Positions 22,241 to 52,595 of a DNA stretch of 55,618 nucleotides are shown in pieces. Position 1 is the stretch's first letter; every line of letters starts with the position of its first letter. The notes beneath the pieces are model-generated. The model did no database searches, was not told where the DNA came from, and saw only the letters and a list, made by a program, of their open reading frames with translations. Source of the DNA: Pseudomonadota bacterium (lineage in GTDB: Bacteria; Bdellovibrionota_F; JAHFAK01; JBDREC01). A program made the position numbers and the translations under genes. Location: positions 62,001 through 117,618 of the forward strand of contig JBDREC010000001.1 in the NCBI GenBank assembly GCA_043820105.1, given 5' to 3'.

Positions 22241-23830
22241 TTGTCAGCAAAGAAAAAATCAGATGAAACAGGAAAAACAGTTGCCCATAGACTTGCAAAA
22301 AAACAAAGAGAAATAGGTGTAGCCGAATTCTTTTCAAGAAACAGACATCTTCTGGGTTTTGATAATAAACGAAAAGCCTTAATGACTACTATAAAAGAAG
22401 CTGTTGATAATTCTTTGGATGCCTGTGAAGAAGCTCATGTTTTGCCTGAAATAATCGTTGAATTAACGGACCTTGGTAATGATCGCTTTAGAGTTATGGT
22501 TGAAGATAATGGTCCTGGAATTTTAAAAAAGCATATTGGAAAAATTTTTGCGAAACTTTTATATGGAAGTAAGTTTCATACAATGAAGCAGAGCAGGGGA
22601 CAACAAGGCATTGGCATTTCAGCTTCTGTTATGTATGCTCAACTTACAACAGGTCGCAGTGCAACAATTATTTCAAAGATTAAAAAAGATGAACCAGCAC
22701 AAATGATGACTTTAAGAATAAATACAAAAAAGAATGCTCCAGAAATTTTAAAAGATGAAATAATTGAGTGGGAAAAAGATCATGGAACAAGGATTGAGCT
22801 TGAACTTGAAGCAAGCTATCAAGGTGGCTTTCAGAGCATTGATGAATATTTAAGGCAAACAGCAATTACAAATCCACATGTTACAATAATTTACAAAAAC
22901 CCAAAGCAAGAGCAAAAGGACTTTCTTAGAGTAACAGAAACTATGCCGCCTGATCCAAAGGAAATCAAACCTCATCCTTATGGTGTAGAGCTTGGTTTGC
23001 TACAACAAATGGCCAAGCACACTGAATCTAAGACCTTGCAAAGCTTTTTAATAAATGAATTTAGTCGTGTTGGTCCAGGAACCGCTAAAGAAATTTGCAA
23101 AAATTCAGAACTTGATCCTGCTTGTAAAGCGCATTTATTAAAAAGAGAACCTCTTGAAAGACTATTTGAGGGAATTAAAAAAACAAAAATAATTAACCCT
23201 CCTACAGATTGTATTAGTCCTATTGGCGAAGAACTAATTGAAGCAAGCTTGAAAAAAGAAATTGAAGCTGAGTTTTATTGTGCTTGTACCAGACCACCTT
23301 CAGTTTATAGAGGCAATCCATTTATTGTAGAAGCTGGCATTGCCTATGGTGGGAATCAAGAAACTGATAAGCTTATTAAGCTTATGCGCTTTGCTAATCG
23401 TGTGCCTCTTTTATATCAGCAATCAGCTTGTGCTGTAACAAAAACAGTAACGCAAACTTTATGGCGCTCATATGGATTAAGTCAAAGTCGAGGTGCTTTG
23501 CCATCTGGACCTGCGACTTTAATTGTTCATATTGCTTCTGTTTGGGTTCCTTTTACTTCTGAATCAAAAGAAGCAATAGCCCATTATCCAGAAATAAAGA
23601 AAGAAATAAAGCTAGCTTTGCAAGTTGTTGGAAGAAAGCTTTCATCTTATGTTAATAAGAAAAAAAGAATACATGCAGAGAGCAAAAAAAGAGATTATAT
23701 TTCAATATATATTCCACATGTTTCAGAAGCTCTTAGTGACTTGTTGGGAAAAGAAGTTGATAAGCCTAAGACGGAAGAGTTGTTGAAAGTTATTTTGGAG
23801 AAGCATCGTGGGAAATTGGAAGATGCTTGA
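22241..23830 (+). CDS. top6B: DNA topoisomerase VI subunit B
   Basis: EAVDNSLDACE, VEDNGPGI, GSKFH..KQSRGQQGIG GHKL motifs; RFANRVPLL; VPFTSESKEAIA. Confidence 0.97.
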   Translation: MSAKKKSDETGKTVAHRLAKKQREIGVAEFFSRNRHLLGFDNKRKALMTTIKEAVDNSLDACEEAHVLPEIIVELTDLGNDRFRVMVEDNGPGILKKHIGKIFAKLLYGSKFHTMKQSRGQQGIGISASVMYAQLTTGRSATIISKIKKDEPAQMMTLRINTKKNAPEILKDEIIEWEKDHGTRIELELEASYQGGFQSIDEYLRQTAITNPHVTIIYKNPKQEQKDFLRVTETMPPDPKEIKPHPYGVELGLLQQMAKHTESKTLQSFLINEFSRVGPGTAKEICKNSELDPACKAHLLKREPLERLFEGIKKTKIINPPTDCISPIGEELIEASLKKEIEAEFYCACTRPPSVYRGNPFIVEAGIAYGGNQETDKLIKLMRFANRVPLLYQQSACAVTKTVTQTLWRSYGLSQSRGALPSGPATLIVHIASVWVPFTSESKEAIAHYPEIKKEIKLALQVVGRKLSSYVNKKKRIHAESKKRDYISIYIPHVSEALSDLLGKEVDKPKTEELLKVILEKHRGKLEDA

Positions 23831-23837
23831 ATAAGCG

Positions 23838-23887
23838 GTAAGTGGTAAGCTATAAGTGGTAAGTTTAGTTGCTGGTTGCTAGTTGCA
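23838..23887 (+). repeat. Heptamer tandem repeats between top6B and top6A
   Basis: gtaagtg/gtaagct/ataagtg/gtaag followed by agttgctggttgctagttgc. Confidence 0.7.
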
Positions 23888-23927
23888 AGTGTAAAAAAAA
23901 AATATAAGAATAAAGGATTATTTGAAA

Positions 23928-25031
23928 ATGCCAAAAAAGATAAATAGTCAAAAAATTGTGCTTGAAAAGATTGAAAACATTGCTCGTAAAGTGCATAAAA
24001 AAATATTGAGAAAGGCTCAACCTGAGCTTACTTCTCCTATTCGGGCCCTATCTAATGTTAAATATGATAAGAAAGAAGGGTATTTCGCGATTTTGGGAAA
24101 GATGAAATCCAGAACCTTAACAGCGTCCTCAGTTAAGACCTTTGCACAGACTTTAAAATTGATGACTCTATCAAAGGAGCTTGTAAAAACCCATGATATA
24201 GCTACCAAAAGGGAAGCTTACTATGTTTCTAAAAACTGGGATTCGGCCCGTTTTAATGAACAGCCAGAGTCAGATGCTGTTATGGATGATGTGGAAGCAA
24301 TGCTGGAAGTTAATAGAGAGCAAATGGGCTTTATTCCAGAAGAAAAAGGTGGAGATGTTGCTGGCAAATTAATTGTAATAGATACAGACCTTGATACAGG
24401 AAAAGCTATTAAGATTGATTGTACAAAATTTGGATCAGGCGCTTATTCTGTTCCATCTTCTGTTGAAGAATTGAAATTTGAAACTAATGCAAAATATCTT
24501 TTAGCAATTGAAACATCAGGTATGTTCCAGCGTCTTGTTAAGCACAATTACTGGAAAAAGAATAATTGTATTTTAGTAAGCTTAGGCGGTGTTCCAACAA
24601 GGGCTTGTAGAAGGTTTATAAGAAGACTATCTGATGAGAAGAAACTTCCAGTTTACGTTTTTACAGATGGTGATCCTTATGGTTATTTAAATATTTATAG
24701 AACACTAAAAGTTGGTTCAGGAAATGCAGCTCACATTAATCAATATTTTTGTGTTCCTAATGCAAAGTTTATTGGTATTACTCCTAATGATATTGAAGAC
24801 TACAAACTTCCTTCGCATCCACTAAAAGACATTGATATAAAAAGGATTAAAGATGGGGTGAAGAATGACCCTTTTGTTAAGCATTATAAACAGTGGCAAA
24901 AGGCTTTATCAAAACTTGTTAAAATGAAGGTTAGGGCTGAGCAGCAAGCACTCGCAACCCATGGGCTTAACTTTGTAATTAGTGATTATTTGCCACAAAA
25001 GCTTAAGAATAAAAAAAGCTGGCTTCCTTGA
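23928..25031 (+). CDS. top6A: DNA topoisomerase VI subunit A (Spo11 family)
   Basis: TKREAYY catalytic Tyr motif, AIETSG and FTDGDPYG TOPRIM, AEQQAL; follows top6B. Confidence 0.96.
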   Translation: MPKKINSQKIVLEKIENIARKVHKKILRKAQPELTSPIRALSNVKYDKKEGYFAILGKMKSRTLTASSVKTFAQTLKLMTLSKELVKTHDIATKREAYYVSKNWDSARFNEQPESDAVMDDVEAMLEVNREQMGFIPEEKGGDVAGKLIVIDTDLDTGKAIKIDCTKFGSGAYSVPSSVEELKFETNAKYLLAIETSGMFQRLVKHNYWKKNNCILVSLGGVPTRACRRFIRRLSDEKKLPVYVFTDGDPYGYLNIYRTLKVGSGNAAHINQYFCVPNAKFIGITPNDIEDYKLPSHPLKDIDIKRIKDGVKNDPFVKHYKQWQKALSKLVKMKVRAEQQALATHGLNFVISDYLPQKLKNKKSWLP

Positions 25032-27671: not shown

Positions 27672-27865
27672 GGGAAACTCCTTTTAAAAAAAATATTACA
27701 AATAAAAAAGATGCTACTTATATATCTTTTTGCTTTTATGGTCTAGATAAAAATCGAGATACAATTCAAGTTGACTTGAAATCACTTATATGAGAAAGGT
27801 CCATAATGAATTGATACATGCTTGCTTGGCATATTTTAATATTTATAAATATTAGTGAGGAAAAA

Positions 27866-28996
27866 ATGGCAGATGATAGAGTCATAGATTTAACAATTAA
27901 ATACCCAAATCTTATGAATGCACCTAAATCAGTTGATCTTTGTTTAACAGGACATTGCAATTTGAAATGTTCATACTGTTTTTATGCAGACAGTATGCAA
28001 GACAAGAAGGATTTAAACACTGAACAGTGGAAGGCTACAATTAAAGAACTTGGTGAAATTGGTGTGCAGGATGTTTGCCTGTCAGGTGGTGAAGTTTTTG
28101 TTAGAAAGGATTTTTGGGAACTTCTTGATAGTGTTATTGAAAACAGAATGAGATATTCTATTTTATCAAATGGAACTTTGATAACAGAAAAAACTATTGA
28201 AGAATTTGGAAAAGGCAAAAGAAGACTTAGAATGAATTCCATACAAGTTTCCATTGATGGATCATGCGCTGAAATTCATAATAAAAGCCGTCCTCATGAT
28301 AGCTTTGATAAGGCATTAAATGGTTTGAAATTACTTGTTAAAAACAAATTCCCAGCAACATGTAGATGCACAATCAATCATCATAATTATCATGATCTTG
28401 AAAATGTTGGAAAGCTTTTACTTGAAGAAGTTGGTTTAAGCTCGTTTTCAACAAATGAAGCAGAACAAATGGGAACTGCCCGTTGTAATGGACAAGATGT
28501 TGTTTTGTCAGTTGAACAAAGAACTCGAGCAATGAACGATCTTATGAATTTAAATGAAAAATATAAGGGAAGAATTCAAGCACAAGCTGGACCCTTAACT
28601 AGAGCCAAGGGTTTTAAAGAAATGGAAGCTTTAATTGAAAAGGGTGAACTAAAAATACCAGGAAGAGGAAATTTGGTTTCTTGTGGTGGCGTATTTTCAA
28701 AGATGGCTATTTTGCATGACGGAACAATGGTTCCTTGTAACATGCTTCATACCTTGTCAATGGGAACAGTTGGAATTAATTCAATTAAAGAAGCCTGGCA
28801 AAGACATCCTTCAATCAATGTAGTTAGAGATCGAAGAAAAATTTCATTAAGAGAATTTGAACAATGCAAAGATTGTGAATATGTTGAAATGTGCACAGGT
28901 GGCTGTCCAGCCTCGATTGCGGCTAGGTTTGATAAATTAAATGAGATTGATCCGCTTTCTTGTTATAAGGAATATTTGAAAGAGAAAAAGCTATAA
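27866..28996 (+). CDS. Radical SAM/SPASM maturase, SynChlorMet ScmE-like
   Basis: CNLKCSYC; SCGGVFSKMAILHDGTMVPC and CKDCEYVEMCTGGCPA SPASM motifs; GAGG RBS before ATG 27866. Confidence 0.8.
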   Translation: MADDRVIDLTIKYPNLMNAPKSVDLCLTGHCNLKCSYCFYADSMQDKKDLNTEQWKATIKELGEIGVQDVCLSGGEVFVRKDFWELLDSVIENRMRYSILSNGTLITEKTIEEFGKGKRRLRMNSIQVSIDGSCAEIHNKSRPHDSFDKALNGLKLLVKNKFPATCRCTINHHNYHDLENVGKLLLEEVGLSSFSTNEAEQMGTARCNGQDVVLSVEQRTRAMNDLMNLNEKYKGRIQAQAGPLTRAKGFKEMEALIEKGELKIPGRGNLVSCGGVFSKMAILHDGTMVPCNMLHTLSMGTVGINSIKEAWQRHPSINVVRDRRKISLREFEQCKDCEYVEMCTGGCPASIAARFDKLNEIDPLSCYKEYLKEKKL

Positions 28997-32408: not shown

Positions 32409-33905
32409 CTACTTTCTAACTTCGCCTGGCTTTTCTTTGCCATATCCTGCTCCTCTACTTTCAAGCTTTGTCTTGGCTTGCTCAACTCTTGGGTTTCTTG
32501 TTCTAAATTCAACATCTCGTCCAGATTCATCAATAGTCATAGTGGCTGCAAGTGTTCTAGGATCAATTTCATGAAGGCAAATATCTTCAGTTCGAGGCAG
32601 TTGAATTATATTTGGTGTTGGGTCCCTTACCAAGTCTTCAGAGTTTACCCAGGCAAGCCTAATTTGAGCTTCTGGATTTTTAGTGTTTAAATATCTTGCT
32701 AAAAATTTTGCTCTAAGTTCTGTTGTTTCCATTATATAGGCTTGTCTGATTAAACCTGCATATAAAACACCAATTTTAGCATCAGTTCCGGTTCTTTTAT
32801 TTACAAAAACATCATGTAATTTGTTTTGAGCTGCTTGGGATTTCGCATAGCTTGCTGTTGTCATTACCTTGAGCCATGCTATAACATAAGATTTTAAAAA
32901 TACTTCTATTGAGCCGTGCTTTACTGCATCCCAAGTTCTATAATCAACAAAGTCTAAGATATCGCTCAAGTGCCATATTGCTAAATCAACATGTAAATCT
33001 TCACCATGTTGATACATGTCTTGATAAACACCTTTAAGCATTTGCACTGGGTCTTTTGAAAGATGGTGCAGGTTTGAATAAAGCTTTCTCTGATTTTGCT
33101 TTGTGCTATGTATTATTCCATCAAGGACATTTCTTATTGGCGAATCAATGTCAAAATTTTGCCTTATAGACTCAAAAACTTCAATGATTTCTTGTGGTTT
33201 ATAGGCTTCAGCTAGCATGCTGTTTTTTAGATTCTCTAGATCATCAATTGTTTTGACTTCCTGGGCTTGCCTTAGAAAATCTGAAAAACTAACTCGATCA
33301 ATGAATACACCTTCTGCTTTGTCATAGAGCTCCTCAGGGTTTGCCAGACCAGCATTAACTTCTCCCAAAGCTTTATAAAGCCATTGAATTTTTCCAATAG
33401 AAAGAAATGTTATCACTGAGTCCGTATTAATTACTTTTAGTATAGCTGCTCTTTTAACTGGATCCTCAAGAGTTTCTTTTATCTTTAAAAAGAAATCAAA
33501 TTTCTCAATAAGCCTTTTTTGTTCATGCCTGCTGGCCTTTGCATATTCTGTGATAAGATCAGCCCCTCCAAAATAAATGCCCTCAGACCAAAAATAATCA
33601 ATAACTCTTTCCCATTTTATTATAAGATCATTTAATAAGGGATTTTGTACTTTTTGGCTTTCTGTCTCTGCTTTCAAGCTTTGAATTTGGTCCTTTATTG
33701 GTTTATAATATTCTTCAGCATCAAAATCCTCACCTGTTGTAGCTTTATAAAAAACAACAGATAAAAATGCTGCTAAATTTTCCTGCTCTCCTGGGCTAAT
33801 TCCTTTGCTTACCACTGTGCTACCAGGATCTGGTGTCTGTGAAAAAAGCCAAGATGAGGAAAGAATAATTAAAGATAAAAATAAGGCGATTTTTTTTTTA
33901 TTCAT
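32409..33905 (-). CDS. Secreted helical hypothetical protein
   Basis: 498-aa ORF with signal peptide. Confidence 0.7.
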   Translation of the reverse strand: MNKKKIALFLSLIILSSSWLFSQTPDPGSTVVSKGISPGEQENLAAFLSVVFYKATTGEDFDAEEYYKPIKDQIQSLKAETESQKVQNPLLNDLIIKWERVIDYFWSEGIYFGGADLITEYAKASRHEQKRLIEKFDFFLKIKETLEDPVKRAAILKVINTDSVITFLSIGKIQWLYKALGEVNAGLANPEELYDKAEGVFIDRVSFSDFLRQAQEVKTIDDLENLKNSMLAEAYKPQEIIEVFESIRQNFDIDSPIRNVLDGIIHSTKQNQRKLYSNLHHLSKDPVQMLKGVYQDMYQHGEDLHVDLAIWHLSDILDFVDYRTWDAVKHGSIEVFLKSYVIAWLKVMTTASYAKSQAAQNKLHDVFVNKRTGTDAKIGVLYAGLIRQAYIMETTELRAKFLARYLNTKNPEAQIRLAWVNSEDLVRDPTPNIIQLPRTEDICLHEIDPRTLAATMTIDESGRDVEFRTRNPRVEQAKTKLESRGAGYGKEKPGEVRK

Positions 33906-33947: not shown

Positions 33948-33963
33948 TGCAAGGCATGTGCCA
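33948..33963 (-). promoter_or_regulatory. sigma54 -24/-12 promoter
   Basis: Minus strand tGGcacatgccttGCa upstream of 33905. Confidence 0.75.
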
Positions 33964-34853: not shown

Positions 34854-35756
34854 TTATGTAATTTCATTCTGAACAAAAATGTGCTTAAAGTCTTTTGTGC
34901 TTAAATAATCGATTGCACTTTCATATTCTGTGCTTTTTAATTTGCGATTAATTTCTGGATAATTTTCTGCTTTGTGAGCCGGAAAATATTGGCCCATAAG
35001 ACTAATCCCAATATCGTTTCCTGTAATTTTCTCTATAAAATCGATTGCCTCAATAGTTGAACTCAGTTTATTGGGAAGCACCATGTGGCGAATTAAAAGG
35101 CCTTTTCTTGCAAGGCCGTTTTTGAGTTTTATTCCTCCAACCTGTTTATACATTTCAATAATTGCTGTGCTAGCAATTTCTTTATAGTTATCAGCCTCTG
35201 AATACTTTTTTGCGAAAGTATCCTTCATGTATTTCAGGTCAGGCATGTAAATGTCAATTATGCCATTTAAAAGTTTTAAGGCAGCTAGCTTTTCATAGCC
35301 AGAGGAATTGTAAACAAGTGGAATTTTTAATCCTTCATTTTTTGCAATTTGCACAGCTTCAATAATTTGGAGTATCATGTGAGATGGGCTTACAAAATTA
35401 ATATTATGCGCGCCCCTTTTTTGCAGCTTAAGCATCATGGCAGCCAGTTGTTTAGCATTTGCAAATTCACCATTTCTATAATGACTGATAGGGAAATTTT
35501 GGCAATAGACACAAGCTAAGTTACAGCCAGAAAAGAAAATAGTGCCAGAGCCTAAATTACCTGAAATTATAGGTTCTTCTCCATGGTGTATGTTGTAGCT
35601 TGCTACTTTTGCATATTTGCCTGTCCCACAGATTCCCAATTCGCCTGCATTTCTATCCACCTTACATTCTCTGGGGCAAGCGTTACATGGACTAATTCCA
35701 ATGGATTCTGTGTTGATACCAGGGAATCCATTAATATTTAAAGTATTTTTTTCCAT
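34854..35756 (-). CDS. PflX-like radical SAM protein
   Basis: CNACPRECKVDR..GICG, HHGEEPIISG..GSGTIFFSGCNLACVYCQN, IDIYMPDLKY. Confidence 0.88.
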   Translation of the reverse strand: MEKNTLNINGFPGINTESIGISPCNACPRECKVDRNAGELGICGTGKYAKVASYNIHHGEEPIISGNLGSGTIFFSGCNLACVYCQNFPISHYRNGEFANAKQLAAMMLKLQKRGAHNINFVSPSHMILQIIEAVQIAKNEGLKIPLVYNSSGYEKLAALKLLNGIIDIYMPDLKYMKDTFAKKYSEADNYKEIASTAIIEMYKQVGGIKLKNGLARKGLLIRHMVLPNKLSSTIEAIDFIEKITGNDIGISLMGQYFPAHKAENYPEINRKLKSTEYESAIDYLSTKDFKHIFVQNEIT

Positions 35757-35982: not shown

Positions 35983-35998
35983 TGGCACAAATCTTGAA
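35983..35998 (+). promoter_or_regulatory. sigma54-like promoter (-12 GA variant)
   Basis: tGGcacaaatcttGAa upstream of 36080. Confidence 0.5.
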
Positions 35999-36079
35999 AA
36001 TAGATTCTTATCAGAAACTTTTTGGGGACAATAAGCTTATTTTATTTATACAGTTATTAAGCAATTTATAGGGGATTTT

Positions 36080-37228
36080 ATGAAGTTATTAAAAATTATC
36101 ACAATTGTCTCATTTCTTTTTTTATTACTTTTCCAAATTATTTTAGCCTGTCCTGAATTAGATAAAAAATTAAAAATGCAAAAACAGTGCAAGGTTTTGG
36201 TTCCTGATGAAATGCTGGATATCAATCCTGGAATTTTGGAACTTTTAGAGGATAAGGGGTATTTCCCCAAAGAAAGGCCTTTTGAAATGGATGAATATCC
36301 AGTGGTGCGCAATCGCAAATTCCTTACAGCTGACTTCACAGAAATTCCCCAACAACGGTGGGTTGAGGCTGAATATGGTGACAGATATGTGCAACCTGTG
36401 TACAGACAGGTTTGTGATCCTGATGTTTATGATGATGTTTGGGTTGAGCCAGTATTCAGGCGAGTGTGTACCAAGGATGAATATAGAAGGATATGGATTC
36501 CAGCTGAAACCAAAAGGGTTTGCTGGGATGATAAATACGAAAGAGTTTGGGTTGATCCGGTTTACAGAGAGGAATGTACTCCAGATGTAACAAAACGTGT
36601 TTGTCACGACGCTGTTATAAAAGAAGTTTGCACTAAAGATGTTTACAAGCAGGAATGCAAGGTTGATCCAAGAACAGGAGAAAGAAAATGCAGGAGGGTA
36701 CTTGTTAAAAAGGGAAGCTGCGAAAAGAGAGTGGTCAAAGAAGCTTATTGTGAAACGATAATTGTGCAGAGGGGAGAATGCAGAAGGGTTGAAGTAAGAC
36801 CAGGGCATTATGAAAACAGACTGGTAAAAAGAGCCGGCTGTGATGATAGGATTATAAGAGAGGGATATTATAAAAATGAACTTATAAGAAGAGGCGAGTG
36901 TCATGATGAACTGGTAAGAGCCGGACATTATGAAAGAAGGTTAATAAGCAAAGGCATTTGCAGGCAGGTGCTAGTGAAAGAAGGCTACTGGGAAAGAAAT
37001 GTATTGTTAAAGCCTGCACACTACAAAAAACTTCCAAGCAGATTTGCCGCTGAAGTTGTAATGAGTGAAAAAGTTAGCAGAAAAGGAAATGTGTTCAAAT
37101 TTGATATAGAGAAATTATTTGATCCTTTTGTATCTGAGGAAAAAAATAAAGGGACTGCATTGATGGAAGCCCTTATGCAACTTATTTCTTGTGAAGAATT
37201 GCTGGCTTTGGAAGAAGAATCTGCTTAA
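36080..37228 (+). CDS. Secreted protein with mirror-symmetric Cys/aromatic repeats (predicted long beta-hairpin)
   Basis: Signal peptide; 9-aa repeats, turn CKVDPRTGERKC, then 10-aa repeats. Confidence 0.8.
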   Translation: MKLLKIITIVSFLFLLLFQIILACPELDKKLKMQKQCKVLVPDEMLDINPGILELLEDKGYFPKERPFEMDEYPVVRNRKFLTADFTEIPQQRWVEAEYGDRYVQPVYRQVCDPDVYDDVWVEPVFRRVCTKDEYRRIWIPAETKRVCWDDKYERVWVDPVYREECTPDVTKRVCHDAVIKEVCTKDVYKQECKVDPRTGERKCRRVLVKKGSCEKRVVKEAYCETIIVQRGECRRVEVRPGHYENRLVKRAGCDDRIIREGYYKNELIRRGECHDELVRAGHYERRLISKGICRQVLVKEGYWERNVLLKPAHYKKLPSRFAAEVVMSEKVSRKGNVFKFDIEKLFDPFVSEEKNKGTALMEALMQLISCEELLALEEESA

Positions 37229-37443
37229 AGAAGATTTGTCCACATCATTTTTTACTATCAACGCTAGAATTGAAAAGGAATATAAATTTATTGGCATCTA
37301 ATTATCGAATAACTCCTTGTCAGCACATTTTTTGAAACGAATTTGAAACAAATTGATTCAAAACTTAAAAAAAATTATAGCCATCCAAATTTAAACAAAT
37401 AACTTTCACATTGATTCTAAGAAGTTAAAACTTTTGTTCATTA

Positions 37444-37459
37444 TGGCACAGGCATTGCA
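37444..37459 (+). promoter_or_regulatory. sigma54 -24/-12 promoter
   Basis: TGGCACaggcaTTGCa, near consensus. Confidence 0.8.
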
Positions 37460-37645: not shown

Positions 37646-37834
37646 ATGAAAGCCGTAAATATGAAAAAATGTTGTGATCTTGATTATTTTTCATTTTATG
37701 AAAAACTTGAACCAGTAGCAAAAGCAAAAGAAAAAAATAAAGCAATTGTGAAAGCCAGAGAAAAAAGTAATGGTGAAAATATGGGTTCGGATTCTAAAGA
37801 TTATTACATGCACATGCTCTATCATAAATTGTAA
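37646..37834 (+). CDS. Small hypothetical protein
   Basis: 62 aa; GGAGG RBS; downstream of sigma54 promoter and structured leader. Confidence 0.6.
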   Translation: MKAVNMKKCCDLDYFSFYEKLEPVAKAKEKNKAIVKAREKSNGENMGSDSKDYYMHMLYHKL

Positions 37835-38721: not shown

Positions 38722-39300
38722 CTAATATTTTAATAGAATAGCGTTTAGCCACTTTTCTTGGCGATCAGGGCGACGATCATCTGTTAACCATAGTTTTTTT
38801 ATTGTTACACTTGGTAAAGATTCTGCTAATGACGTCATTCCCTGTTCATTAAGATCCGTAAAAATTCTACCGTCTTTAACTCTTTCTTGTGTGCCGTGCT
38901 TAAAAGAGACATATGCTGCACCACCTGATTTTAAGGCATTAAGCAGTTTTAACATTATTGCAGATAATTCATTGTGAGGAACATGGAGTAAAGATGCACA
39001 AGCCCAGATGCCATCGTATATATTTTTTTCGTCTACTTCATTGAATGCCCTTAGATCAATTCTAACTCCTGTTAATTTATTAGCCATCTTCACCATTTCT
39101 TCTGAAACATCAAATGCACTGATTTTATATCCTTTGTCTAAGAAAGCTTTGCTATCTCTACCTGATCCACAGCCCACATCGAGAATGTAGCCTCCTTTTG
39201 GAATATATTTTAAAAACTCCCGATAGAAGGATTCCATATTAACAGAAACTGTATCGTTAAAAAACTTTTTAGCATTCTGATTATAATAATTTACACTCAT
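38722..39300 (-). CDS. Class I SAM-dependent methyltransferase
   Basis: ILDVGCGSGRDS, YDGIWACASLLH; start overlaps HNH stop (TAATG). Confidence 0.9.
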   Translation of the reverse strand: MSVNYYNQNAKKFFNDTVSVNMESFYREFLKYIPKGGYILDVGCGSGRDSKAFLDKGYKISAFDVSEEMVKMANKLTGVRIDLRAFNEVDEKNIYDGIWACASLLHVPHNELSAIMLKLLNALKSGGAAYVSFKHGTQERVKDGRIFTDLNEQGMTSLAESLPSVTIKKLWLTDDRRPDRQEKWLNAILLKY

Positions 39301-40325
39301 TAGAATATCTCAACTCCTTGTTTTGGTGGTTCCCATGTGTGAATTAATTGTTGAATTGCGAAATTATATTGTGTTTGCAGAAAAGAAATACGTTTATTTT
39401 CATTAATACCCGTTTGTCTGATGAGGGTTTCTCGTAAGGGGTGGTGGCTATTAATAAGATACTCATTGCGTTTATGCAGTCGTTTAAGCAATTTCAAAGA
39501 CGGAATTCTGGCAAATTTCCCGTTCTCTCCTCGATTGCAATCTTGGCATGCTAACACCAAATTCCATATCCCATTTATATTTTTCAAAACAGTATTTAAC
39601 ATCCATGGTAGAAAATGGTCAACCTCAACATCTATAGTATCAATTCTGGTATCTTTTTCAATCTTGATAGGATGGTAACAATAGAAGCATCGACCTTTCT
39701 GGTACCCATTCAGACTACTTCGACAGGAAGTTATGGTAACTCGTCTATTTTCATCCTCTGTAAATAGAACATTATTTGCTTGATCGTAATCAACTGTGAT
39801 AAGTTGACGAGAAATATTTAATCTCCAGCTTTCTTCAACTAGCCTCCATCTGGATTCAGTTTCATGTATTAAATTTTCAAACTGCATATCTTTAGCTAAT
39901 TTAAAAAAGTTTTCAGTAATTCGGATACCTTGAGACTGTCTGCGTTCATCAATGAAGAACAATTCAGGAACATTTTCTCTGTTTACTATATGAAAAGCAT
40001 CAATAACATTATTGAAACCCTGGTTGACCGTTATCTGGATGAGCTCGTCCTTTGTTATATTATTATTAATATATTTATTACATGCATCAAGAAAGCTGCT
40101 TGATTTTGATGTGATCTGTTTAGGAGAATGTTTTAAATGTTCACATAAATGCCTGCTAAACGGTTCAGCTAATTTTTCCAATGTAACAAGATCATTTTCA
40201 ATTTTTCCCATTTCCAAAAGGGCTTTAGCTAAAGCGAACTTATAGGATGCAACATTGCGACCAAAGAGGATAATCGCCCTCCAATAATTGTCTAGAGAGT
40301 TTTCTATAAGGTAAAACTTTGACAT
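39300..40325 (-). CDS. HNH endonuclease domain protein
   Basis: N-terminal YKFALAKAL; CFYC..EVDHFLPW..WNLVLACQDCN..K. Confidence 0.9.
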   Translation of the reverse strand: MSKFYLIENSLDNYWRAIILFGRNVASYKFALAKALLEMGKIENDLVTLEKLAEPFSRHLCEHLKHSPKQITSKSSSFLDACNKYINNNITKDELIQITVNQGFNNVIDAFHIVNRENVPELFFIDERRQSQGIRITENFFKLAKDMQFENLIHETESRWRLVEESWRLNISRQLITVDYDQANNVLFTEDENRRVTITSCRSSLNGYQKGRCFYCYHPIKIEKDTRIDTIDVEVDHFLPWMLNTVLKNINGIWNLVLACQDCNRGENGKFARIPSLKLLKRLHKRNEYLINSHHPLRETLIRQTGINENKRISFLQTQYNFAIQQLIHTWEPPKQGVEIF

Positions 40326-42965: not shown

Positions 42966-45827
42966 ATGAACTTAATAGACCTTAACTACAATTCTGAATT
43001 GAAAAAATTTATTGACCAGGCAAAAACAGACAATCTCAAGACCAAGCATTTTCTTAACACATTTAATGATATTAGGATAAAGGTGAGTTTCGGCCAGGGT
43101 TCTGCTGCCAAAATTCCATGGATTGCCTTCCTGAAAGCGCCAAACACAGTCAGTGATGGGATTTATCCAGTTTACTTATTTTTCAAAGAGATTAACAAAC
43201 TTATACTAAGTTATGGTATTAGTGAAACAAATTCCCCTAAGCATAGTTGGAATATTGACCAAAAAATGCTAATTAAAGACTATTTTTTAGAGCATAATCT
43301 TGTAAATCCAGAACGCTATGGTGGTTCATACATATTCAAAGTGTACGATGTCAACAACATGCCCTCTGATGAGATATTAAACTCAGACCTATCTGAAATA
43401 TTGGAGTGTTACCGTTCTCAAAAATTTGAATTTGAGCCACCAAATAAGACTTGTTGGTTTGTAGGAGCCTCTTATAGTGATGCCAGCGAAGATCAAACTG
43501 ATCGATTTATTGATAACGGTATTTGGGAAAATGGATATGACGACAAGTATCTAGACTTAGTTCGCTCAATCAATGTTGGAGATCGGATTGCAATTAAATC
43601 AGCCTATACTCGTAAAAATAACTTATCATTTGATACTAATGGAAACATTGTATCTGTAATGGGAATAAAGGCAATAGGCGTTGTCACAAAAAACCATGGA
43701 GATGGAAAATCTATCGATGTGGACTGGGAACCACGATTAAACCCAGTTCGAGAGTGGTATTTCTATACTAATCGCTCAACAATATGGCGTGTTGTACCAG
43801 ATGAATGGATGTCCAAAGAACTTGTTAATTTCACTTTTAATAATGGCCCTCAAAGCATAAGTAAATTTAAAAACGCTCCCTTTTGGCAAGAAAGATTTGG
43901 TGATAAAAAAGAAAAAGAACAACGCTTCCAATGGACAGAATTTTATGAAGCCATAGCTAATAACATATTGGATTTCAAAGAAGATCGCTCAAAATTAATA
44001 TCTGAGATTCACAGGCTCTCTGCAAAATTCGATTGTATGAGCGTGTTAAATGATCATTTCATTGATGGATCAATTGGTTTACTTAAGGATATGTGCCCAT
44101 TTACAATTCTAGGTATTTTTAACCGGGGATTGACAGACAAAAATCGTCAACTGATAGCTAAAGAGCTTGCAACTTTTTTTAAGCTAGATATTCCAGCACC
44201 AGAAACATTTTTGGGAATACCTGTTCTTAATAATCAGCAGTCTTGGTTTTTTGCTTATGAAAATAAAAGAGAAAAATATGACATAGATAAACTCTGGGAT
44301 TTCTTCGAAACAGCAATAAACTTTTCTGATGAACAAGAAGATAACCTAAAAAGTACATTTATAAACAAGTATGATGAGGTTAATAATGTCAGAGGTGTGG
44401 GTTGGAATATCACAATGGGCTTGTATTGGATAAGACCCTGGTTTTATTTAACTCTTGATAGTCGCTCACAAAAATACATATCTGAAAGATTAGGGTTTGA
44501 AATACGTAAATCATCACCAAAAGGTCGATGCACTGGAACTGAATACATTAGCTTGTTAGATGAAATAAGCACGCGATTTAAGGAAGAAGCATATCCCGCG
44601 CATTCATTTCCAGAATTATCATTAAATGCATGGAAATCAGAGTACACTAGTGCTGAAAAGGATATTCAAACCTGGAAAAGCCTGGTATATCAAAAGATCA
44701 AAGAGCTTTGTGAAGAAAAAAACGACAGTTTATTCTCGATGCAAGAATTTCTAAATAAATACCAAAATGATTTTCAAACACTTTATCCCAGCAATAATAC
44801 TATTCAGGCTTCATTGGCTCGCAATTTGCAACTCTTACGTGATGAGGACCTAATTGAGTTTCTAAGCAATGGGCAATATCAATTGCTTGATTATACTGTA
44901 GATTCAGTTGAAGAATTTATTGCTTTACCAATACAACATGAACCATATAACCTAGAAAGTATTATTTCAGATGGATGTTTTCTTGAAACAAAAGAGCTAA
45001 AAATGATCCTTGAACGATTATATCAAAAGAAAAATATTATTCTTCAAGGCCCTCCAGGTACAGGAAAAACATGGCTGGCTAAGCGTTTAGGCTATGCTTT
45101 GATTGGATTTAAAAATGATGAAAAGTTAAAAGCTGTACAATTTCACGCAAACCTTTCATATGAAGATTTTGTTCGTGGCTGGCGCCCTTCTGCAGAAGGT
45201 AAACTTGCCTTAATAGATGGACCCATACTTGAAATTATTAGTGCTGCAAAAAAAGACGCAGAAACAAAACATGTTATTATTATTGAAGAAATAAACCGAG
45301 GAAACCCTGCGCAAATATTTGGAGAAATGTTAACGTTGCTTGAAGCTGACAAGCGTACACCAAGCGAAGCACTGGAGCTTAGTTATAGAAGAAATGAAAG
45401 TGAGCGTTTTTTTATTCCTAACAACCTTTATGTAATAGGAACCATGAATATTGCAGACAGGTCTTTGGCATTAGTTGATTTGGCTTTAATGAGAAGATTT
45501 GCTTTCATAAGTCTCAAACCAACATTTGGCCAACCCTGGAGAAACTGGGTTCACGAAAAATCTGGTATAGATATGCATATTCTAGAATCAATAGAACAAA
45601 GAATACTTAAGTTAAATTCTGAAATCGAAAGTGATAAAAATCTAGGACCTCAATTTAAAATTGGACACAGCTATGTAACTCCAGCTTTTAGCAATACTAT
45701 AAACGATCCATTAACATGGTACAAAGGTGTAGTCTCAACAGAGATTGCACCACTACTAAGTGAATATTGGTTTAATGATCCAGATCAAGCTAGAAAGGCA
45801 AAAGAAAAGTTGGTTGAAGGTCTTTGA
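42966..45827 (+). CDS. mcrB: McrB-family AAA+ GTPase with multiple N-terminal DNA-binding domains
   Basis: GPPGTGKT, YEDFVRG, IIEEINRG, MNIADRS, D.ALMRRF, IGHSY. Confidence 0.93.
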   Translation: MNLIDLNYNSELKKFIDQAKTDNLKTKHFLNTFNDIRIKVSFGQGSAAKIPWIAFLKAPNTVSDGIYPVYLFFKEINKLILSYGISETNSPKHSWNIDQKMLIKDYFLEHNLVNPERYGGSYIFKVYDVNNMPSDEILNSDLSEILECYRSQKFEFEPPNKTCWFVGASYSDASEDQTDRFIDNGIWENGYDDKYLDLVRSINVGDRIAIKSAYTRKNNLSFDTNGNIVSVMGIKAIGVVTKNHGDGKSIDVDWEPRLNPVREWYFYTNRSTIWRVVPDEWMSKELVNFTFNNGPQSISKFKNAPFWQERFGDKKEKEQRFQWTEFYEAIANNILDFKEDRSKLISEIHRLSAKFDCMSVLNDHFIDGSIGLLKDMCPFTILGIFNRGLTDKNRQLIAKELATFFKLDIPAPETFLGIPVLNNQQSWFFAYENKREKYDIDKLWDFFETAINFSDEQEDNLKSTFINKYDEVNNVRGVGWNITMGLYWIRPWFYLTLDSRSQKYISERLGFEIRKSSPKGRCTGTEYISLLDEISTRFKEEAYPAHSFPELSLNAWKSEYTSAEKDIQTWKSLVYQKIKELCEEKNDSLFSMQEFLNKYQNDFQTLYPSNNTIQASLARNLQLLRDEDLIEFLSNGQYQLLDYTVDSVEEFIALPIQHEPYNLESIISDGCFLETKELKMILERLYQKKNIILQGPPGTGKTWLAKRLGYALIGFKNDEKLKAVQFHANLSYEDFVRGWRPSAEGKLALIDGPILEIISAAKKDAETKHVIIIEEINRGNPAQIFGEMLTLLEADKRTPSEALELSYRRNESERFFIPNNLYVIGTMNIADRSLALVDLALMRRFAFISLKPTFGQPWRNWVHEKSGIDMHILESIEQRILKLNSEIESDKNLGPQFKIGHSYVTPAFSNTINDPLTWYKGVVSTEIAPLLSEYWFNDPDQARKAKEKLVEGL

Positions 45828-46939
45828 TGGAATCTATTGCTGTAGAAAAACAATCGAAGGATATTTCAACAAGGCTACTTGGAAAAATACCAGTTCGAAA
45901 CATTTGGTTATTAATGCTTTATGCTTCTAACTTGTACCGTCAACAAGGTTCTAATCAAGTAGCAATTGATGAAAATCCAGATAAAATTGCCGATCTAGTT
46001 GCTGAAATACTCTGCCATCAAGTTGAACAACGTTTATTTAGAAATCTCACATATGGATACCAAAACAAAACAGGTGAACTTACTCGGATTAGAGGCCGAA
46101 TAGATGCTCTATTTACTGAAAGTCATAGGTTGATGGAAAGAGGTAAGATTTGTTGCAAATATGACATGTTGACGGTTGACACACCAAGAAACCAATATAT
46201 TAGAGCAGCATTAGACCATATCAGTTCACTTGTATTTAACAAAGAACTTTCATGTAAATGTTGTCTATTAGCCAAAAGACTTCACAATATTGGTGTTTCC
46301 AAAAGCTTTCCTTATGGTTATAGCACTAGTCGTGAAAGATTTAATTGTAACGATGCAGAGGATAATAAAATGGTATCGGCAGCAGAGTTAGCTTTTTCAC
46401 TAGCTCTGCCTACAGAGTTTTTTGGGCGAACTTTATTACCAATACCAGACAAAAATATAGAATGGCTTCGTAAATTATTTGAAAAAGGAATCGGTGGTTT
46501 TTACTCTGCTGTGCTAGATAGGTCTAGATGGAATGTATTAACAGGAAAGCAGTTTAATTGGCAAATATGTAGCAAGACCAACGGAATGGATAAAATACTT
46601 CCTAGCATGAAAACAGATATAATCATTGACAATCAGGATACTGGTAATCGACTAATAATTGATACAAAATTTAATGAGATTACAACCAAAGGCTGGTACC
46701 GTACAGAGTCTCTAAGAAATACCTATTTATACCAAATGTATACTTATTTAAGAAGTCAGGAAAATATAGATGATCCTCAGTCACTCGCAACAAGTGGTAT
46801 GTTACTGCACCCTTCTATTGATAGAGATTATGATGAAAGTGTAACAATCCAAGGTCATCTTATCAGGTTTTGTACAGTTAATCTTGGGCTTGATGCTTTT
46901 AAAATAAAAGAAAGATTACTTCATTTATTAAAACAATAA
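45824..46939 (+). CDS. mcrC: McrC restriction endonuclease subunit
   Basis: IPVRNIWLLMLYA, RIRGRID, LFEK, TDIII..IIDTKF, YLYQMYTY; overlaps mcrB stop. Confidence 0.93.
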   Translation: MMESIAVEKQSKDISTRLLGKIPVRNIWLLMLYASNLYRQQGSNQVAIDENPDKIADLVAEILCHQVEQRLFRNLTYGYQNKTGELTRIRGRIDALFTESHRLMERGKICCKYDMLTVDTPRNQYIRAALDHISSLVFNKELSCKCCLLAKRLHNIGVSKSFPYGYSTSRERFNCNDAEDNKMVSAAELAFSLALPTEFFGRTLLPIPDKNIEWLRKLFEKGIGGFYSAVLDRSRWNVLTGKQFNWQICSKTNGMDKILPSMKTDIIIDNQDTGNRLIIDTKFNEITTKGWYRTESLRNTYLYQMYTYLRSQENIDDPQSLATSGMLLHPSIDRDYDESVTIQGHLIRFCTVNLGLDAFKIKERLLHLLKQ

Positions 46940-50521: not shown

Positions 50522-51778
50522 TTAATTTATTTGATGAGAATTATTTTTCAGATCTCTTTTTAGTCTTGTATAGGTATCAGAACTTATTTTTAACTTGTTC
50601 ATTATTTCTTTTCTAGTATATTTTTCACTAAGCAGGTGATTAAACCAGCGCAATTCAAAAATTCTTTTGCCTCTTTTAATATCTAATTTAAAAATATCAT
50701 TTATTTCAAATGGTATTTTTGGAATTGCTTGGTTATTAATTATGGAACTTTTATTAATTGAATTGGCAATATTTTCTAGTACCTCGCTAACATTGGGGGG
50801 TGCTTGCTCTTCAAAAAGTGAGGTTGCTTGATAAATTTCACTTTCATGTTGGCTTAGCAATTCTTTCTCCAGAAGCTGGAGAAAGATGTCTCCATATTCC
50901 ACGATTTTATTATTAATCAAATCATCAAGTTTAATTATTTCATCTTCATTTAAATATAGCCAATCGTCATTACTTAAATTGTAGTGTTTCGAGAAGTAAC
51001 TATTTGCTGTTAGGACTGTTGGTGTTTCTGAGATATCTAAAGGCAATGTGCTAATTTTATATTTATTCGGGTCAATGGACTTGCTTTTTAGTTTAAAATG
51101 AGTTGCAGGTGTAATCTCTTCCAGTATTCTAAGAAATTCTCGAATATTGCCTTTATACTCTAACTCATTTATTAGTATATCCCATAGAGTTGACGATAAA
51201 TAATCAATTCCATTTTGCTTTAAATACTCTATTAAAAAATATTTAATATCTAGTTTTCTAAACTTCAGAGGAAATATTTTTACTATTACTTCAAACCTAT
51301 CAACTAAATCACCTCTTAGTGATGAAATTTTATTAGTGGCTGCAATAAATTTAAAATCTTTAAATTTTTCAACTTTGGTGCTACCTATTCTAGAGAACTC
51401 TTTGTTTTGTAATAATCTCAAGATGCCAGATTGATTTTCTTCAGGCATATCACCAATTTCATCGAATGCTATGTTTTTCCCTTGTTCTACTAATCCAATT
51501 ACATCTTTGATCGCTCCAGTATATGCTCCTTTATCAGCTCCAAATAGTTCGAGTGTTAATGATGAGCTGGGTTGAGCACAATTGATAGTAACCCATTCTT
51601 CCTTCCCGTCAGTGATTTCAGTTCTTTGATTTATATAGAAGTTCATAAATATTTCTTTTCCAACACCTCTTTTGCCAACAAACAGAACTGTTTCACCGCA
51701 ATTTGCAGCTTCTATAGTTTTTTCCTTACTAGAGACTGCAGTGTGAGATCTCAATATATAGTCATTGAATTTAATCAT
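50522..51778 (-). CDS. sigma54 enhancer-binding AAA+ activator lacking an N-terminal sensory domain
   Basis: GKRGVGKE, INCA, ELFGADKGAYTGA, FDEIGDM, LRLLQ, IAATN, GNIRE; C-terminal Fis-like HTH. Confidence 0.88.
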   Translation of the reverse strand: MIKFNDYILRSHTAVSSKEKTIEAANCGETVLFVGKRGVGKEIFMNFYINQRTEITDGKEEWVTINCAQPSSSLTLELFGADKGAYTGAIKDVIGLVEQGKNIAFDEIGDMPEENQSGILRLLQNKEFSRIGSTKVEKFKDFKFIAATNKISSLRGDLVDRFEVIVKIFPLKFRKLDIKYFLIEYLKQNGIDYLSSTLWDILINELEYKGNIREFLRILEEITPATHFKLKSKSIDPNKYKISTLPLDISETPTVLTANSYFSKHYNLSNDDWLYLNEDEIIKLDDLINNKIVEYGDIFLQLLEKELLSQHESEIYQATSLFEEQAPPNVSEVLENIANSINKSSIINNQAIPKIPFEINDIFKLDIKRGKRIFELRWFNHLLSEKYTRKEIMNKLKISSDTYTRLKRDLKNNSHQIN

Positions 51779-51893: not shown

Positions 51894-51909
51894 TGGCACC
51901 TATCTTGCT
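51894..51909 (+). promoter_or_regulatory. sigma54 -24/-12 promoter
   Basis: TGGCACctatcTTGCt, divergent from the activator and upstream of 51953. Confidence 0.8.
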
Positions 51910-51952: not shown

Positions 51953-52177
51953 ATGAAAGTAAGTAAAGCATTAATTACTGCTTATAAAACTTCAAAGATT
52001 AAAGGTTATAAAATTGCCCAAAAAGCAAAACTAAATCCTTCTACATTTTTTCAGATAATGAATAGCATCATACCTATTAAATATGAAGATGAAAGAGTTT
52101 TAAGGATTGCAATGGTTCTTGGAGTTGTAGCCAAAGATGCCTTTGAAAAAGTAAAGGAGGATAAAGTTGAAAAGTAA
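51953..52177 (+). CDS. Small Cro/XRE-like HTH protein
   Basis: YKIAQKAKLNPSTFFQIMN...RIAMVLGV. Confidence 0.7.
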   Translation: MKVSKALITAYKTSKIKGYKIAQKAKLNPSTFFQIMNSIIPIKYEDERVLRIAMVLGVVAKDAFEKVKEDKVEK

Positions 52178-52595
52178 AAAGGACGATCTTTTTATACCCC
52201 CAAAAGAAGATGAATTAGTTTTAGTTCCAGATGGTATTTATAAAGCAAGGTGCCTTGAGGGTAAACCAGTAAATTTTTATTCTCAAAGGAAGGTAAAATT
52301 AGATTTTATAATGGTCGATCTTGGAGAACAGTATGGAAAGAAGATTCCATTGTTTCTTAATATAGCACCCAAAGGCAAAAGGAATATTTCTTCAGGATCA
52401 TTCTATTATCTTTATTGGATAATTGCCAACAGAGGAGAAAAGCCAACTCGGCGAGATAGAATGACACCAGAAAAATTTAAAGACAAATTATTCAAAATTA
52501 AAACTAGAACTGTGAGTAAGAATAGAAAACAACAAAAATTACCTAAGAGTATGTGGCATTCTGTAGTAGACGCAATATTGGAGCTAATTGAGTGA
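52167..52595 (+). CDS. Phage-type OB-fold/SSB-like protein (DUF669-like)
   Basis: LVPDGIYKA...KVKLDF..GEQYGKKI pattern; AGGAGG RBS. Confidence 0.5.
   Translation: MKSKKDDLFIPPKEDELVLVPDGIYKARCLEGKPVNFYSQRKVKLDFIMVDLGEQYGKKIPLFLNIAPKGKRNISSGSFYYLYWIIANRGEKPTRRDRMTPEKFKDKLFKIKTRTVSKNRKQQKLPKSMWHSVVDAILELIE

Follow-up and report, generated by a model that had tools for sequence, protein, structure and literature searches.

A predicted secreted protein with two mirror-ordered repeat arms from a Bdellovibrionota_F genome, a candidate giant disulfide-stapled beta-hairpin

Results

Gene and protein layout

The sequence analyzed here, referred to as the window, is a stretch of 55,618 nucleotides from a Pseudomonadota bacterium (GTDB lineage Bacteria; Bdellovibrionota_F; JAHFAK01; JBDREC01), and corresponds to positions 62,001 to 117,618 of the forward strand of contig JBDREC010000001.1 (assembly GCA_043820105.1). 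It contains a gene whose product, P0001, carries two arrays of short repeats, called here the N arm and the C arm, on both sides of a small loop. In an earlier note, made from the sequence alone, this protein was proposed to form a giant beta-hairpin stapled by disulfides. The gene is present as a single copy in its genome (3.8 Mb, 92.9% complete) and its features, together with the others considered in this work, are collected in Table 1. The repeat region at 36359-37024 was confirmed to be in frame and to encode residues 94-315, that is, 222 amino acids.

Table 1. Position in the window, strand and basis of the features of the P0001 gene and of its surroundings (ORF, open reading frame; AF2, AlphaFold2 model).
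Feature	Position	Strand	Description and basis
P0001 coding sequence	36080..37228	+	382 aa + stop; sole long ORF at the locus
Ribosome-binding site	36070..36075	+	AGGGGA, ATG 4 nt downstream; sequence reading
Putative signal peptide	36080..36151	+	Ends in lipobox-like I-L-A-C24; sequence, AF2 helix at residues 2-22
Base, N-terminal half	36152..36358	+	Residues 25-93, holds C37, non-repetitive; AF2: low confidence, short helices
N arm	36359..36658	+	Residues 94-193, eleven 9-residue steps, keys W,Y,C,W,C,W,C,W,C,C,C,C; sequence
Tip loop	36656..36691	+	C193-KVDPRTGERK-C204 (CX10C); AF2: 196-201 non-strand, flanking strands 188-195 and 202-210
C arm	36689..37024	+	Residues 204-315, ten 10-residue steps and one of 11, keys C,C,C,C,Y,C,Y,C,Y,C,W,Y; sequence
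Base, C-terminal half	37025..37225	+	Residues 316-382, holds C371, non-repetitive; AF2 helices 355-368 and 371-381, low confidence
Sigma-54-like element TGGCAC-N5-TTGA	35983..35997	+	83 nt upstream of the P0001 ATG; -24 GG present, -12 imperfect
Perfect TGGCAC-N5-TTGC	33950-33963	-	Upstream of a 498-aa secreted-looking protein without Pfam hit, 32409..33905 (-)
Perfect TGGCAC-N5-TTGC	37444-37458	+	Upstream of a 62-aa ORF with strong ribosome-binding site, 37646..37834
Perfect TGGCAC-N5-TTGC	51894-51908	+	Upstream of ORF 52167..52595
Sigma54_activat gene (enhancer-binding protein)	50522..51778	-	Profile match in the window
Radical-SAM gene	34854..35756	-	No SPASM domain; divergent, 323 bp upstream of the P0001 gene; Pfam
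Radical-SAM/SPASM gene	27818..28996	+	Pfam
Topoisomerase VI B and A genes	22241-25031	+	Adjoining
Methyltransferase, HNH and McrBC group	38722-40325	-
Methyltransferase, HNH and McrBC group	42966-46939	+

The N-terminus of P0001 was read by eye as an MKLLK n-region followed by a hydrophobic core and by I-L-A-C24, which resembles the lipobox as it is generally described. This sequence fits the secretion claimed in the earlier note, although as a reading by eye, and P0001 is probably an exported and lipid-anchored envelope protein of a diderm bacterium.

The key residues of the N arm (W94, Y103, C112, W121, C130, W139, C148, W157, C166, C175, C184 and C193) are exactly 9 residues apart, and those of the C arm (C204, C214, C224, C234, Y244, C254, Y264, C274, Y284, C294 and W304) exactly 10, with a Gly at position 8 of the C-arm units. 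The repeat lengths of 9 and 10 residues proposed earlier hold throughout, except for the final step of the C arm, in which Y315 follows W304 after 11 residues. Each arm has seven cysteines, every one of them at a key position. The remaining cysteines after the lipobox Cys24 are C37 and C371, which lie 75 and 77 residues outside C112 and C294, respectively; this placement is nearly symmetric and therefore all 16 post-lipobox cysteines can pair in mirror order.

The repeats are old: Tandem Repeats Finder gave no trace of them in the DNA of the gene, and the mean identity between units is 30% at protein level and 48% at DNA level. Despite this 30% identity, the spacing has been kept without the loss of a single residue over about 100 residues in each arm. 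Among the sequencing runs listed, one DNA run matched the gene (word share of 0.08) through an identical contig of 159 nt at 37104-37262 and two short unlike pieces, and no RNA run containing the P0001 sequence was found.

Mirror order of the rungs

Going from the loop outward, the classes of the key residues follow an identical string in the two arms, CCCCACACACAA. A recount from the sequence agreed with the earlier note in that all 12 rungs match, seven as Cys-Cys and five as aromatic-aromatic pairs. Other registers gave 4/11 matches (one-rung slide), 8/10 (two-rung slide) and 2/12 (parallel order). The chance of 12/12 matches under random arrangement of seven Cys and five aromatic residues is 1/792, a value that makes the match look rarer than it is, given the alternating super-repeat of both arms. 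Since tandem duplication yields direct order, the mirrored pattern needs selection.

The register was also examined at the residues between the rungs. Anchoring the arms on the key residues and leaving out one C-arm residue at each rung gave 88 non-key mirror pairs. They comprised 17 hydrophobic-hydrophobic, 18 opposite-charge and two like-charge pairs, the best result of eight rotations. Of 5000 position permutations, 0.16% attained the opposite-minus-like value and 10% the hydrophobic count; the skipped (bulge) position of the C arm was picked post hoc, and positions 3-8 yielded similar numbers. The N arm carries a net negative charge (17 K/R against 22 D/E) and the C arm a net positive one (27 K/R against 16 D/E), and these four residues amount to 39/100 residues of the N arm and 43/112 of the C arm. 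Six Pro were found in the N arm and nine Gly bulges in the C arm.

Structure models of P0001

P0001 was modelled with AlphaFold2 (AF2) as a single sequence, with no alignment, and the model was analyzed through its DSSP string. The predicted local distance difference test (pLDDT) was 73-88 over residues 161-240, which comprise the loop and the four all-Cys rungs. With a mapping anchored on the rungs, strand and non-strand states agreed with those of the mirror partners at 99 of the 100 N-arm positions, including the irregular non-strand stretches 141-151 and 250-262. The agreement fell to 83-84 positions with a shift of one residue, to 72-75 with a shift of one rung and to at most 73 with the parallel map. 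A two-stranded ladder forces such behaviour and two separate sheets would not. In both arms the strands are broken for 2-3 residues at every rung.

Foldseek gave nothing significant with this model. Its best rows (E ≥0.026) were the pore forms of aerolysin, epsilon toxin, lysenin and anthrax protective antigen, and phage tail proteins. VIA-align, run on the top 999 chains of Foldseek, superimposed residues 149-252 of the model on hairpins, with Z of 2.0-3.9, root-mean-square deviation (rmsd) of 5.6-8 Å and 55-99 residues aligned. The partners were stem hairpins of pore proteins (CDTb, iota Ib, protective antigen and lysenin), hairpins in the tail knobs of phi29, P68 and Andhra, and also SasG and an HU-like arm. 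These matches reflect the shape of the model, one long hairpin, and no kinship. No compact fold resembling the model was present among the Foldseek and VIA-align rows, and the whole model compared by VIA-align with 48,161 representative chains matched by its signal-peptide helix alone (Z ≤3.4). Prediction of the two arms as a complex (residues 86-198 with 199-320) scored 0.27 and 0.26, against a mark of 0.34. Of the antiparallel ribbon proposed in the earlier note, the mirror pairing has good support from the rungs, the charges and the strand states of the model, whereas the extended ribbon appears only in the confident part, at residues ~150-252.

Searches for relatives

No P0001 homologue was found in 40 related genomes, only three of which share its class. 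Searches among 5.8 billion and 1.84 billion proteins gave no close homologue, only remote hits at the level of the repeats (phmmer E 1e-4 to 1e-7). P0001 had no match in Pfam (E ≤0.1), NCBIfam or the Protein Data Bank (PDB), and nothing was found for the arms of relatives, either in Pfam (nine relatives compared) or by sequence in the PDB. The matches of P0001 in the ESM Atlas had feature scores of at most 0.80 and template modelling (TM) scores of 0.16-0.31. The YTV repeat (PF07639), a lead from the ESM Atlas, was rejected as it did not match P0001, nor anything in the whole genome at E ≤10.

Twelve of the 16 non-self hits in the representative library were inspected (all except P0015, P0018, P0019 and P0021). 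Six of them (P0010, P0017, P0022, P0024, P0025 and P0028) are bacterial and have a two-arm look; the other six (P0014, P0016, P0020, P0023, P0026 and P0027) look like low-complexity arrays of one type. The best non-self hit (P0014, E 1.4e-17) is an agrin-like eukaryotic protein of 1151 aa with about 38 tandem 10-residue units of the GKKVxRGSC / GKKVTRGYC kind, which resemble the C arm of P0001, and without the N-arm type. Its likeness may come from convergent composition or from a similar zipping principle.

The P0017 family gave 25 hits, 18 of which were aligned (alignment A2). A2 aligned with P0001 by hhalign with a probability of 97.1% and E 5.8e-11, the 110 matched columns extending from the outer RWVEAEY motif past the loop to the start of the C arm, and in the whole genome the hidden Markov model of A2 hit solely the P0001 gene (E 6.5e-12). 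As read from the sequences, both share an N-arm period of 9, a C-arm period of about 10 and an export signal. Length changes in this family are mirrored: P0143 and P0144 lack three residues from each arm, 22 and 21 residues from the apex of the loop, and P0155 has about one additional unit per arm at two sites, next to the loop (+9/+11) and towards the base (+9/+10), both placed to within about one unit. A clean mirrored Cys pair was present in P0141 only, 51 and 54 residues from the end anchors. Four related loci were found with P0145 as seed. Two of them encode small WxPGHW-type repeat proteins without two arms and the other two have no matching ORF. The two small proteins (L005, 3782-4162, and L006, 279-662; 126-127 aa) are secreted, come from delta-proteobacterial metagenome-assembled genomes and have VPGHW/WVAGHYE-type repeats in no two-arm layout; sequence words of these proteins also occur in the P0017 family.

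The second family, from gut Oscillospiraceae/Ruminococcus, gave 610 hits, 120 of which were listed; the arms were analyzed in 116 after three truncated members and one without the start anchor had been dropped. Its alignment (A1) matched P0001 by hhalign with a probability of 91% in 33 N-arm columns only, and A2 weakly (26%). In the module a CxxC...C knob separates the N arm from the C arm, and the whole stands behind a lipoprotein signal, a Big_2/dockerin domain, or a sigma factor of the extracytoplasmic function (ECF) type with a membrane helix.

The arm lengths of the listed members are correlated (r = 0.97 over 93 distinct arm pairs) and fall into the classes (24,33) in 13 proteins, (26,35) in 10, (27,36) in two, (32,42) in 10, (35,45) in 43, (42,51) in 25, and (45,54) and (51,61) in one each. 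These classes imply several separate length changes despite the kinship of the members. Inserts of three residues in the N arm (PAEPAVTK) and in the C arm (TPAK) occurred together in 13/116 and were both absent in 103/116, and the counts of HPAxT and AWxE units were equal in 99/116. The earlier note had expected homologues to gain or lose repeats in both arms together, and this was found in two remote families, as arm-length classes in the gut family and as mirrored indels in A2.

AF2 modelling of P0024 with 117 sequences gave a pLDDT of 89-94 over residues 150-220, with a 16-residue strand, a knob with a helix and an 18-residue strand; the model is poor where the private extra units of this protein lie. 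The Foldseek rows of the P0024 model were dominated by its immunoglobulin-like domain and the knob was unmatched.

Other observations concern the composition of two-arm proteins. In many of the proteins P0003-P0136 of the gut family the two-arm module is fused to a sigma factor of the ECF type together with a membrane helix and a linker rich in Pro, Thr and Asn, and the family may represent a membrane-tethered sigma factor with an extracellular sensor stalk. The knob, of the CxxC...H...C form, resembles a zinc-finger-like strand-strand-helix unit. In P0017, P0025, P0082 and P0121, which come from several families and were parsed by eye, unit flavours seem to pair across the arms, with IPAVT/PAEPAVTK in the N arm opposite PARTE/TPAK in the C arm and VWV-type units opposite GxY/W-type units. 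P0025, also by eye, has about five TIPAVTQTV units and five PARTETVEV units in mirrored block order.

Putative promoter and genomic context

The sigma54-like promoter proposed in the earlier note is supported in part: the -24 element is present, but the -12 element has the G and an A in place of the C (TTGA and not TTGC). TGGCAC-N5-TTG was found four times in the window, versus 0.38 expected, always upstream of a co-oriented ORF; the copy of the P0001 gene has TTGA and the other three have TTGC. The genome encodes sigma-54 (rpoN). It also encodes a VKOR homologue over the Pfam cut-off and four Omp85 proteins, whereas no DsbB was found in this 92.9% complete genome, and therefore an oxidising periplasm in a diderm cell is plausible.

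The neighbours of the P0001 gene (radical-SAM, ParB-N domain, HNH endonuclease, methyltransferase and McrBC genes) are functionally unrelated, and the gene looks monocistronic. The downstream genes encode a methyltransferase, an HNH protein, a McrB-like AAA protein with a DpnI-type domain, and McrC, a group that looks like a restriction or defence cluster. Genes for both subunits of topoisomerase VI were also found in the window, here in a bacterial genome.

Discussion

The data favour the reading that residues 94-315 of P0001 form one giant two-stranded beta-hairpin, paired in mirror order and standing on a lipid-anchored base, to which we assign a probability of about 0.6. Mirror-order pairing of the arms, considered on its own, is very likely. 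We lean towards a ribbon that stays two-stranded throughout the arms, with clearly more reserve, and a function as a stalk or spacer is a tentative suggestion that may well prove wrong. The roles of ruler, strut or adhesin stalk put forward in the earlier note are likewise conjectural. In terms of kinship, we favour P0001 as a remote member of an unnamed set of secreted proteins with two repeat arms, in expanded form and with a cysteine ladder.

The process would begin with export and lipidation. The chain would then fold back at the CX10C loop and zip outward, the twelve 9-residue units of the N arm pairing with the twelve 10-residue units of the C arm. The ribbon would be kinked or bulged at each rung, with the extra C-arm residue near the conserved Gly. 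Seven rungs would be fixed by disulfides, probably made by VKOR, and five by aromatic pairs, while hydrophobic pairs and salt bridges would be opposed between the rungs. The N-arm Pro, the C-arm Gly bulges and the high charge would prevent association through the free edges. At the membrane-proximal base the two terminal segments would come together, held by C37-C371. This would give a segmented, presumably monomeric rod on a lipid anchor, serving as stalk, spacer or spike, of up to ~30-35 nm if straight and less if kinked, a length that corresponds to 100-112 residues per arm at the usual rise of ~0.33 nm per residue.

Several observations weigh against this reading. The whole AF2 model of P0001 has a mean pLDDT of 47 and a predicted TM score (pTM) of 0.21, with rungs 5-12 (the outer ~7-8) below a pLDDT of 50, and the model of P0001 in the ESM Atlas itself has a pTM of 0.18. 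The hairpin topology is inferred from the mirroring of DSSP states and from weak structural matches (Z <4). Moreover, we know of no solved precedent for a free-standing two-stranded ribbon with ~100 residues per arm. As P0001 has no close homologue, paired gain and loss is seen in remote families and not in its own lineage. The arm correlations of the gut family count lineages and not independent events, because its members are kin, and off-diagonal arm pairs also exist in it: (32,45), (33,41), (33,51) and (35,51) in one protein each and (36,42) in seven. In the P0017 family the cysteines are sporadic, mostly unmirrored, and odd in number in 7/11 members with core cysteines; in P0145 five lie in the N arm against one in the C arm, and the pairs of P0151 and P0147 are unmirrored. 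For this reason, a Cys at a key position is by itself no proof of a cross-arm disulfide, as it can simply replace an aromatic residue. The predicted disulfides of P0001 would rest on its own 7 + 7 pattern and not on family precedent.

Four other explanations were considered. The arms could pair in mirror order while the ribbon coils into a superhelix, or the units could stack as two meander sheets, giving an object only a few nm long. A ribbon segmented by strand breaks at every rung could indeed bend at each of them, the 18/20-residue super-repeat of Cys and aromatic residues would suit two-strand units, and both the high rmsd of the superpositions on straight hairpins and the low confidence of the outer rungs suit a coiled or stacked form. 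However, both arms follow an HH-PP-HH-PP pattern, unlike the alternating one of a sheet with one buried face, and the residues at the breaks (DP, DA and EA) would be poor two-residue hairpin turns according to general turn statistics. In addition, the mirroring of strand states persists through the irregular gap 141-151 / 250-262, no compact beta fold matched the model, and the relative P0024 was modelled with continuous strands of 16-18 residues. We consider such a compact form rather unlikely. It is improbable that the hairpin is the subunit of an oligomer in which copies join edge to edge into a long beta-barrel or fibre. Both edges of a lone two-stranded ribbon are unsatisfied, and the only structures that resemble the model are hairpins from within oligomeric barrels, but these matches are weak (Z ≤3.9) and concern the shape only. 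The arms are highly charged and offer no alternating hydrophobic face for a membrane or barrel core, and Pro residues and Gly bulges like theirs are features generally associated with edge strands that avoid association.

The mirror pattern could also be a coincidence between two independent repeat arrays with local disulfides or none, given that a simple block plus alternation in both arms makes the effective number of patterns far smaller than 792, and that relatives carry unpaired cysteines at key positions. Nevertheless, seven is an odd number, so that at least one Cys of each arm would have to cross or stay free, and the phase of the pattern, the length of the block and its end all coincide between the arms. 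As charge complementarity is specific to the mirror register, the relatives show mirrored co-indels and duplication in tandem would not have given this order, coincidence appears very improbable. Finally, P0001 could be a Cys-rich precursor that receives thioether or other cross-links from a neighbouring radical-SAM enzyme, as suggested by the divergent gene upstream and by the radical-SAM/SPASM gene of the window. This is scarcely credible: an export signal and 382 residues are unlike the precursors generally described, the adjacent enzyme lacks SPASM, and 7 kb of DNA with unrelated genes separates the SPASM gene from that of P0001.

The giant hairpin favoured here shares its layout with the two-arm families described above. 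These have a signal peptide or membrane tether, 9-residue N-arm units of the xRVWVxPxx / xPAVTxxV kind, a loop or knob and then ~10-residue C-arm units of the xxVVxxGxY kind, and their arms change together. The bounding motifs are also similar (RWVEAEY ... KPAHY in P0001 and VWVxGHYE ... VWVPGHY in A2). P0001 differs from these relatives in having 12 rungs versus ~3-8, a strict 7 + 7 Cys ladder that they lack, and base segments of ~68 residues on both sides. Its tip is a small CX10C loop of 12 residues, whereas the gut relatives have a CxxC...C knob of ~25 residues with a helix. That module, with the knob at the tip and attached to sensors or surface domains, fits a projecting role.

Cystine-ladder beta-hairpin peptides and tryptophan zippers hold antiparallel strands together by 2-3 rungs two residues apart, within 12-20 residues. 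P0001 is predicted to use the same staples, in 12 rungs 9-10 residues apart over 222 residues, and would be about ten times larger. The stems of pore proteins and the phage tail knobs are, like the confident part of the P0001 model, one long hairpin of ~40-50 residues per arm; they work only in oligomeric barrels, and they have neither sequence similarity to P0001 nor a repeat ladder. In principle, the nearest analogue would be the stalk of the streptococcal antigen I/II adhesins, which, as outlined in PMC6586375, is formed by two different repeat regions from the halves of a single chain lying alongside each other, one alpha-helical and alanine-rich and the other in polyproline-II form. As proposed for P0001, the far end lies at the tip and both chain ends are near the base (PMC6586375). 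The arms of P0001, in contrast, are both predicted to be beta strands zipped by Cys and aromatic pairs. P0001 has no sequence relation to these adhesins, which include V and C domains, and no Pfam match. SasG (PMC4458895) and the Periscope proteins (PMC8201768) are outlined as elongated projections made of head-to-tail arrays of small domains, whose length depends on the number of repeats, whereas in P0001 a change of length would require matching changes at two places far apart in the gene. Searches of open-access papers and preprints yielded no account of a comparable hairpin stalk, and P0001 is probably a repeat-built envelope stalk of a new variety, on evidence that is wholly computational.

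A more general building principle for envelope stalks may be considered, to which we would give somewhat less than even odds. The chain would zip by a "rung code" of matched unit flavours (Cys-Cys, aromatic-aromatic, PAVT with PARTE/TPAK), and length would evolve only by paired indels at mirrored sites, P0001 being, with about the same reservation, the extreme form with 12 rungs and seven disulfides. If such a fold does exist, no free-standing beta-hairpin of greater length would be known, and bacterial stalks would have a third design besides coiled coils and head-to-tail domain arrays. Its readable pairing code, with cross-strand disulfides and aromatic pairs as a natural ladder, would be of interest to protein designers. 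Mirrored co-indels could be used as a signature to find more proteins of this kind, and at least 610 gut-bacterial proteins, many of them with a membrane-tethered sigma factor, would gain a testable model for a module that is unannotated. For the bacterium that encodes it, P0001 would be long enough to span or exceed the periplasm as a spacer, ruler or surface spike, which bears on how the dimensions of the envelope are set.

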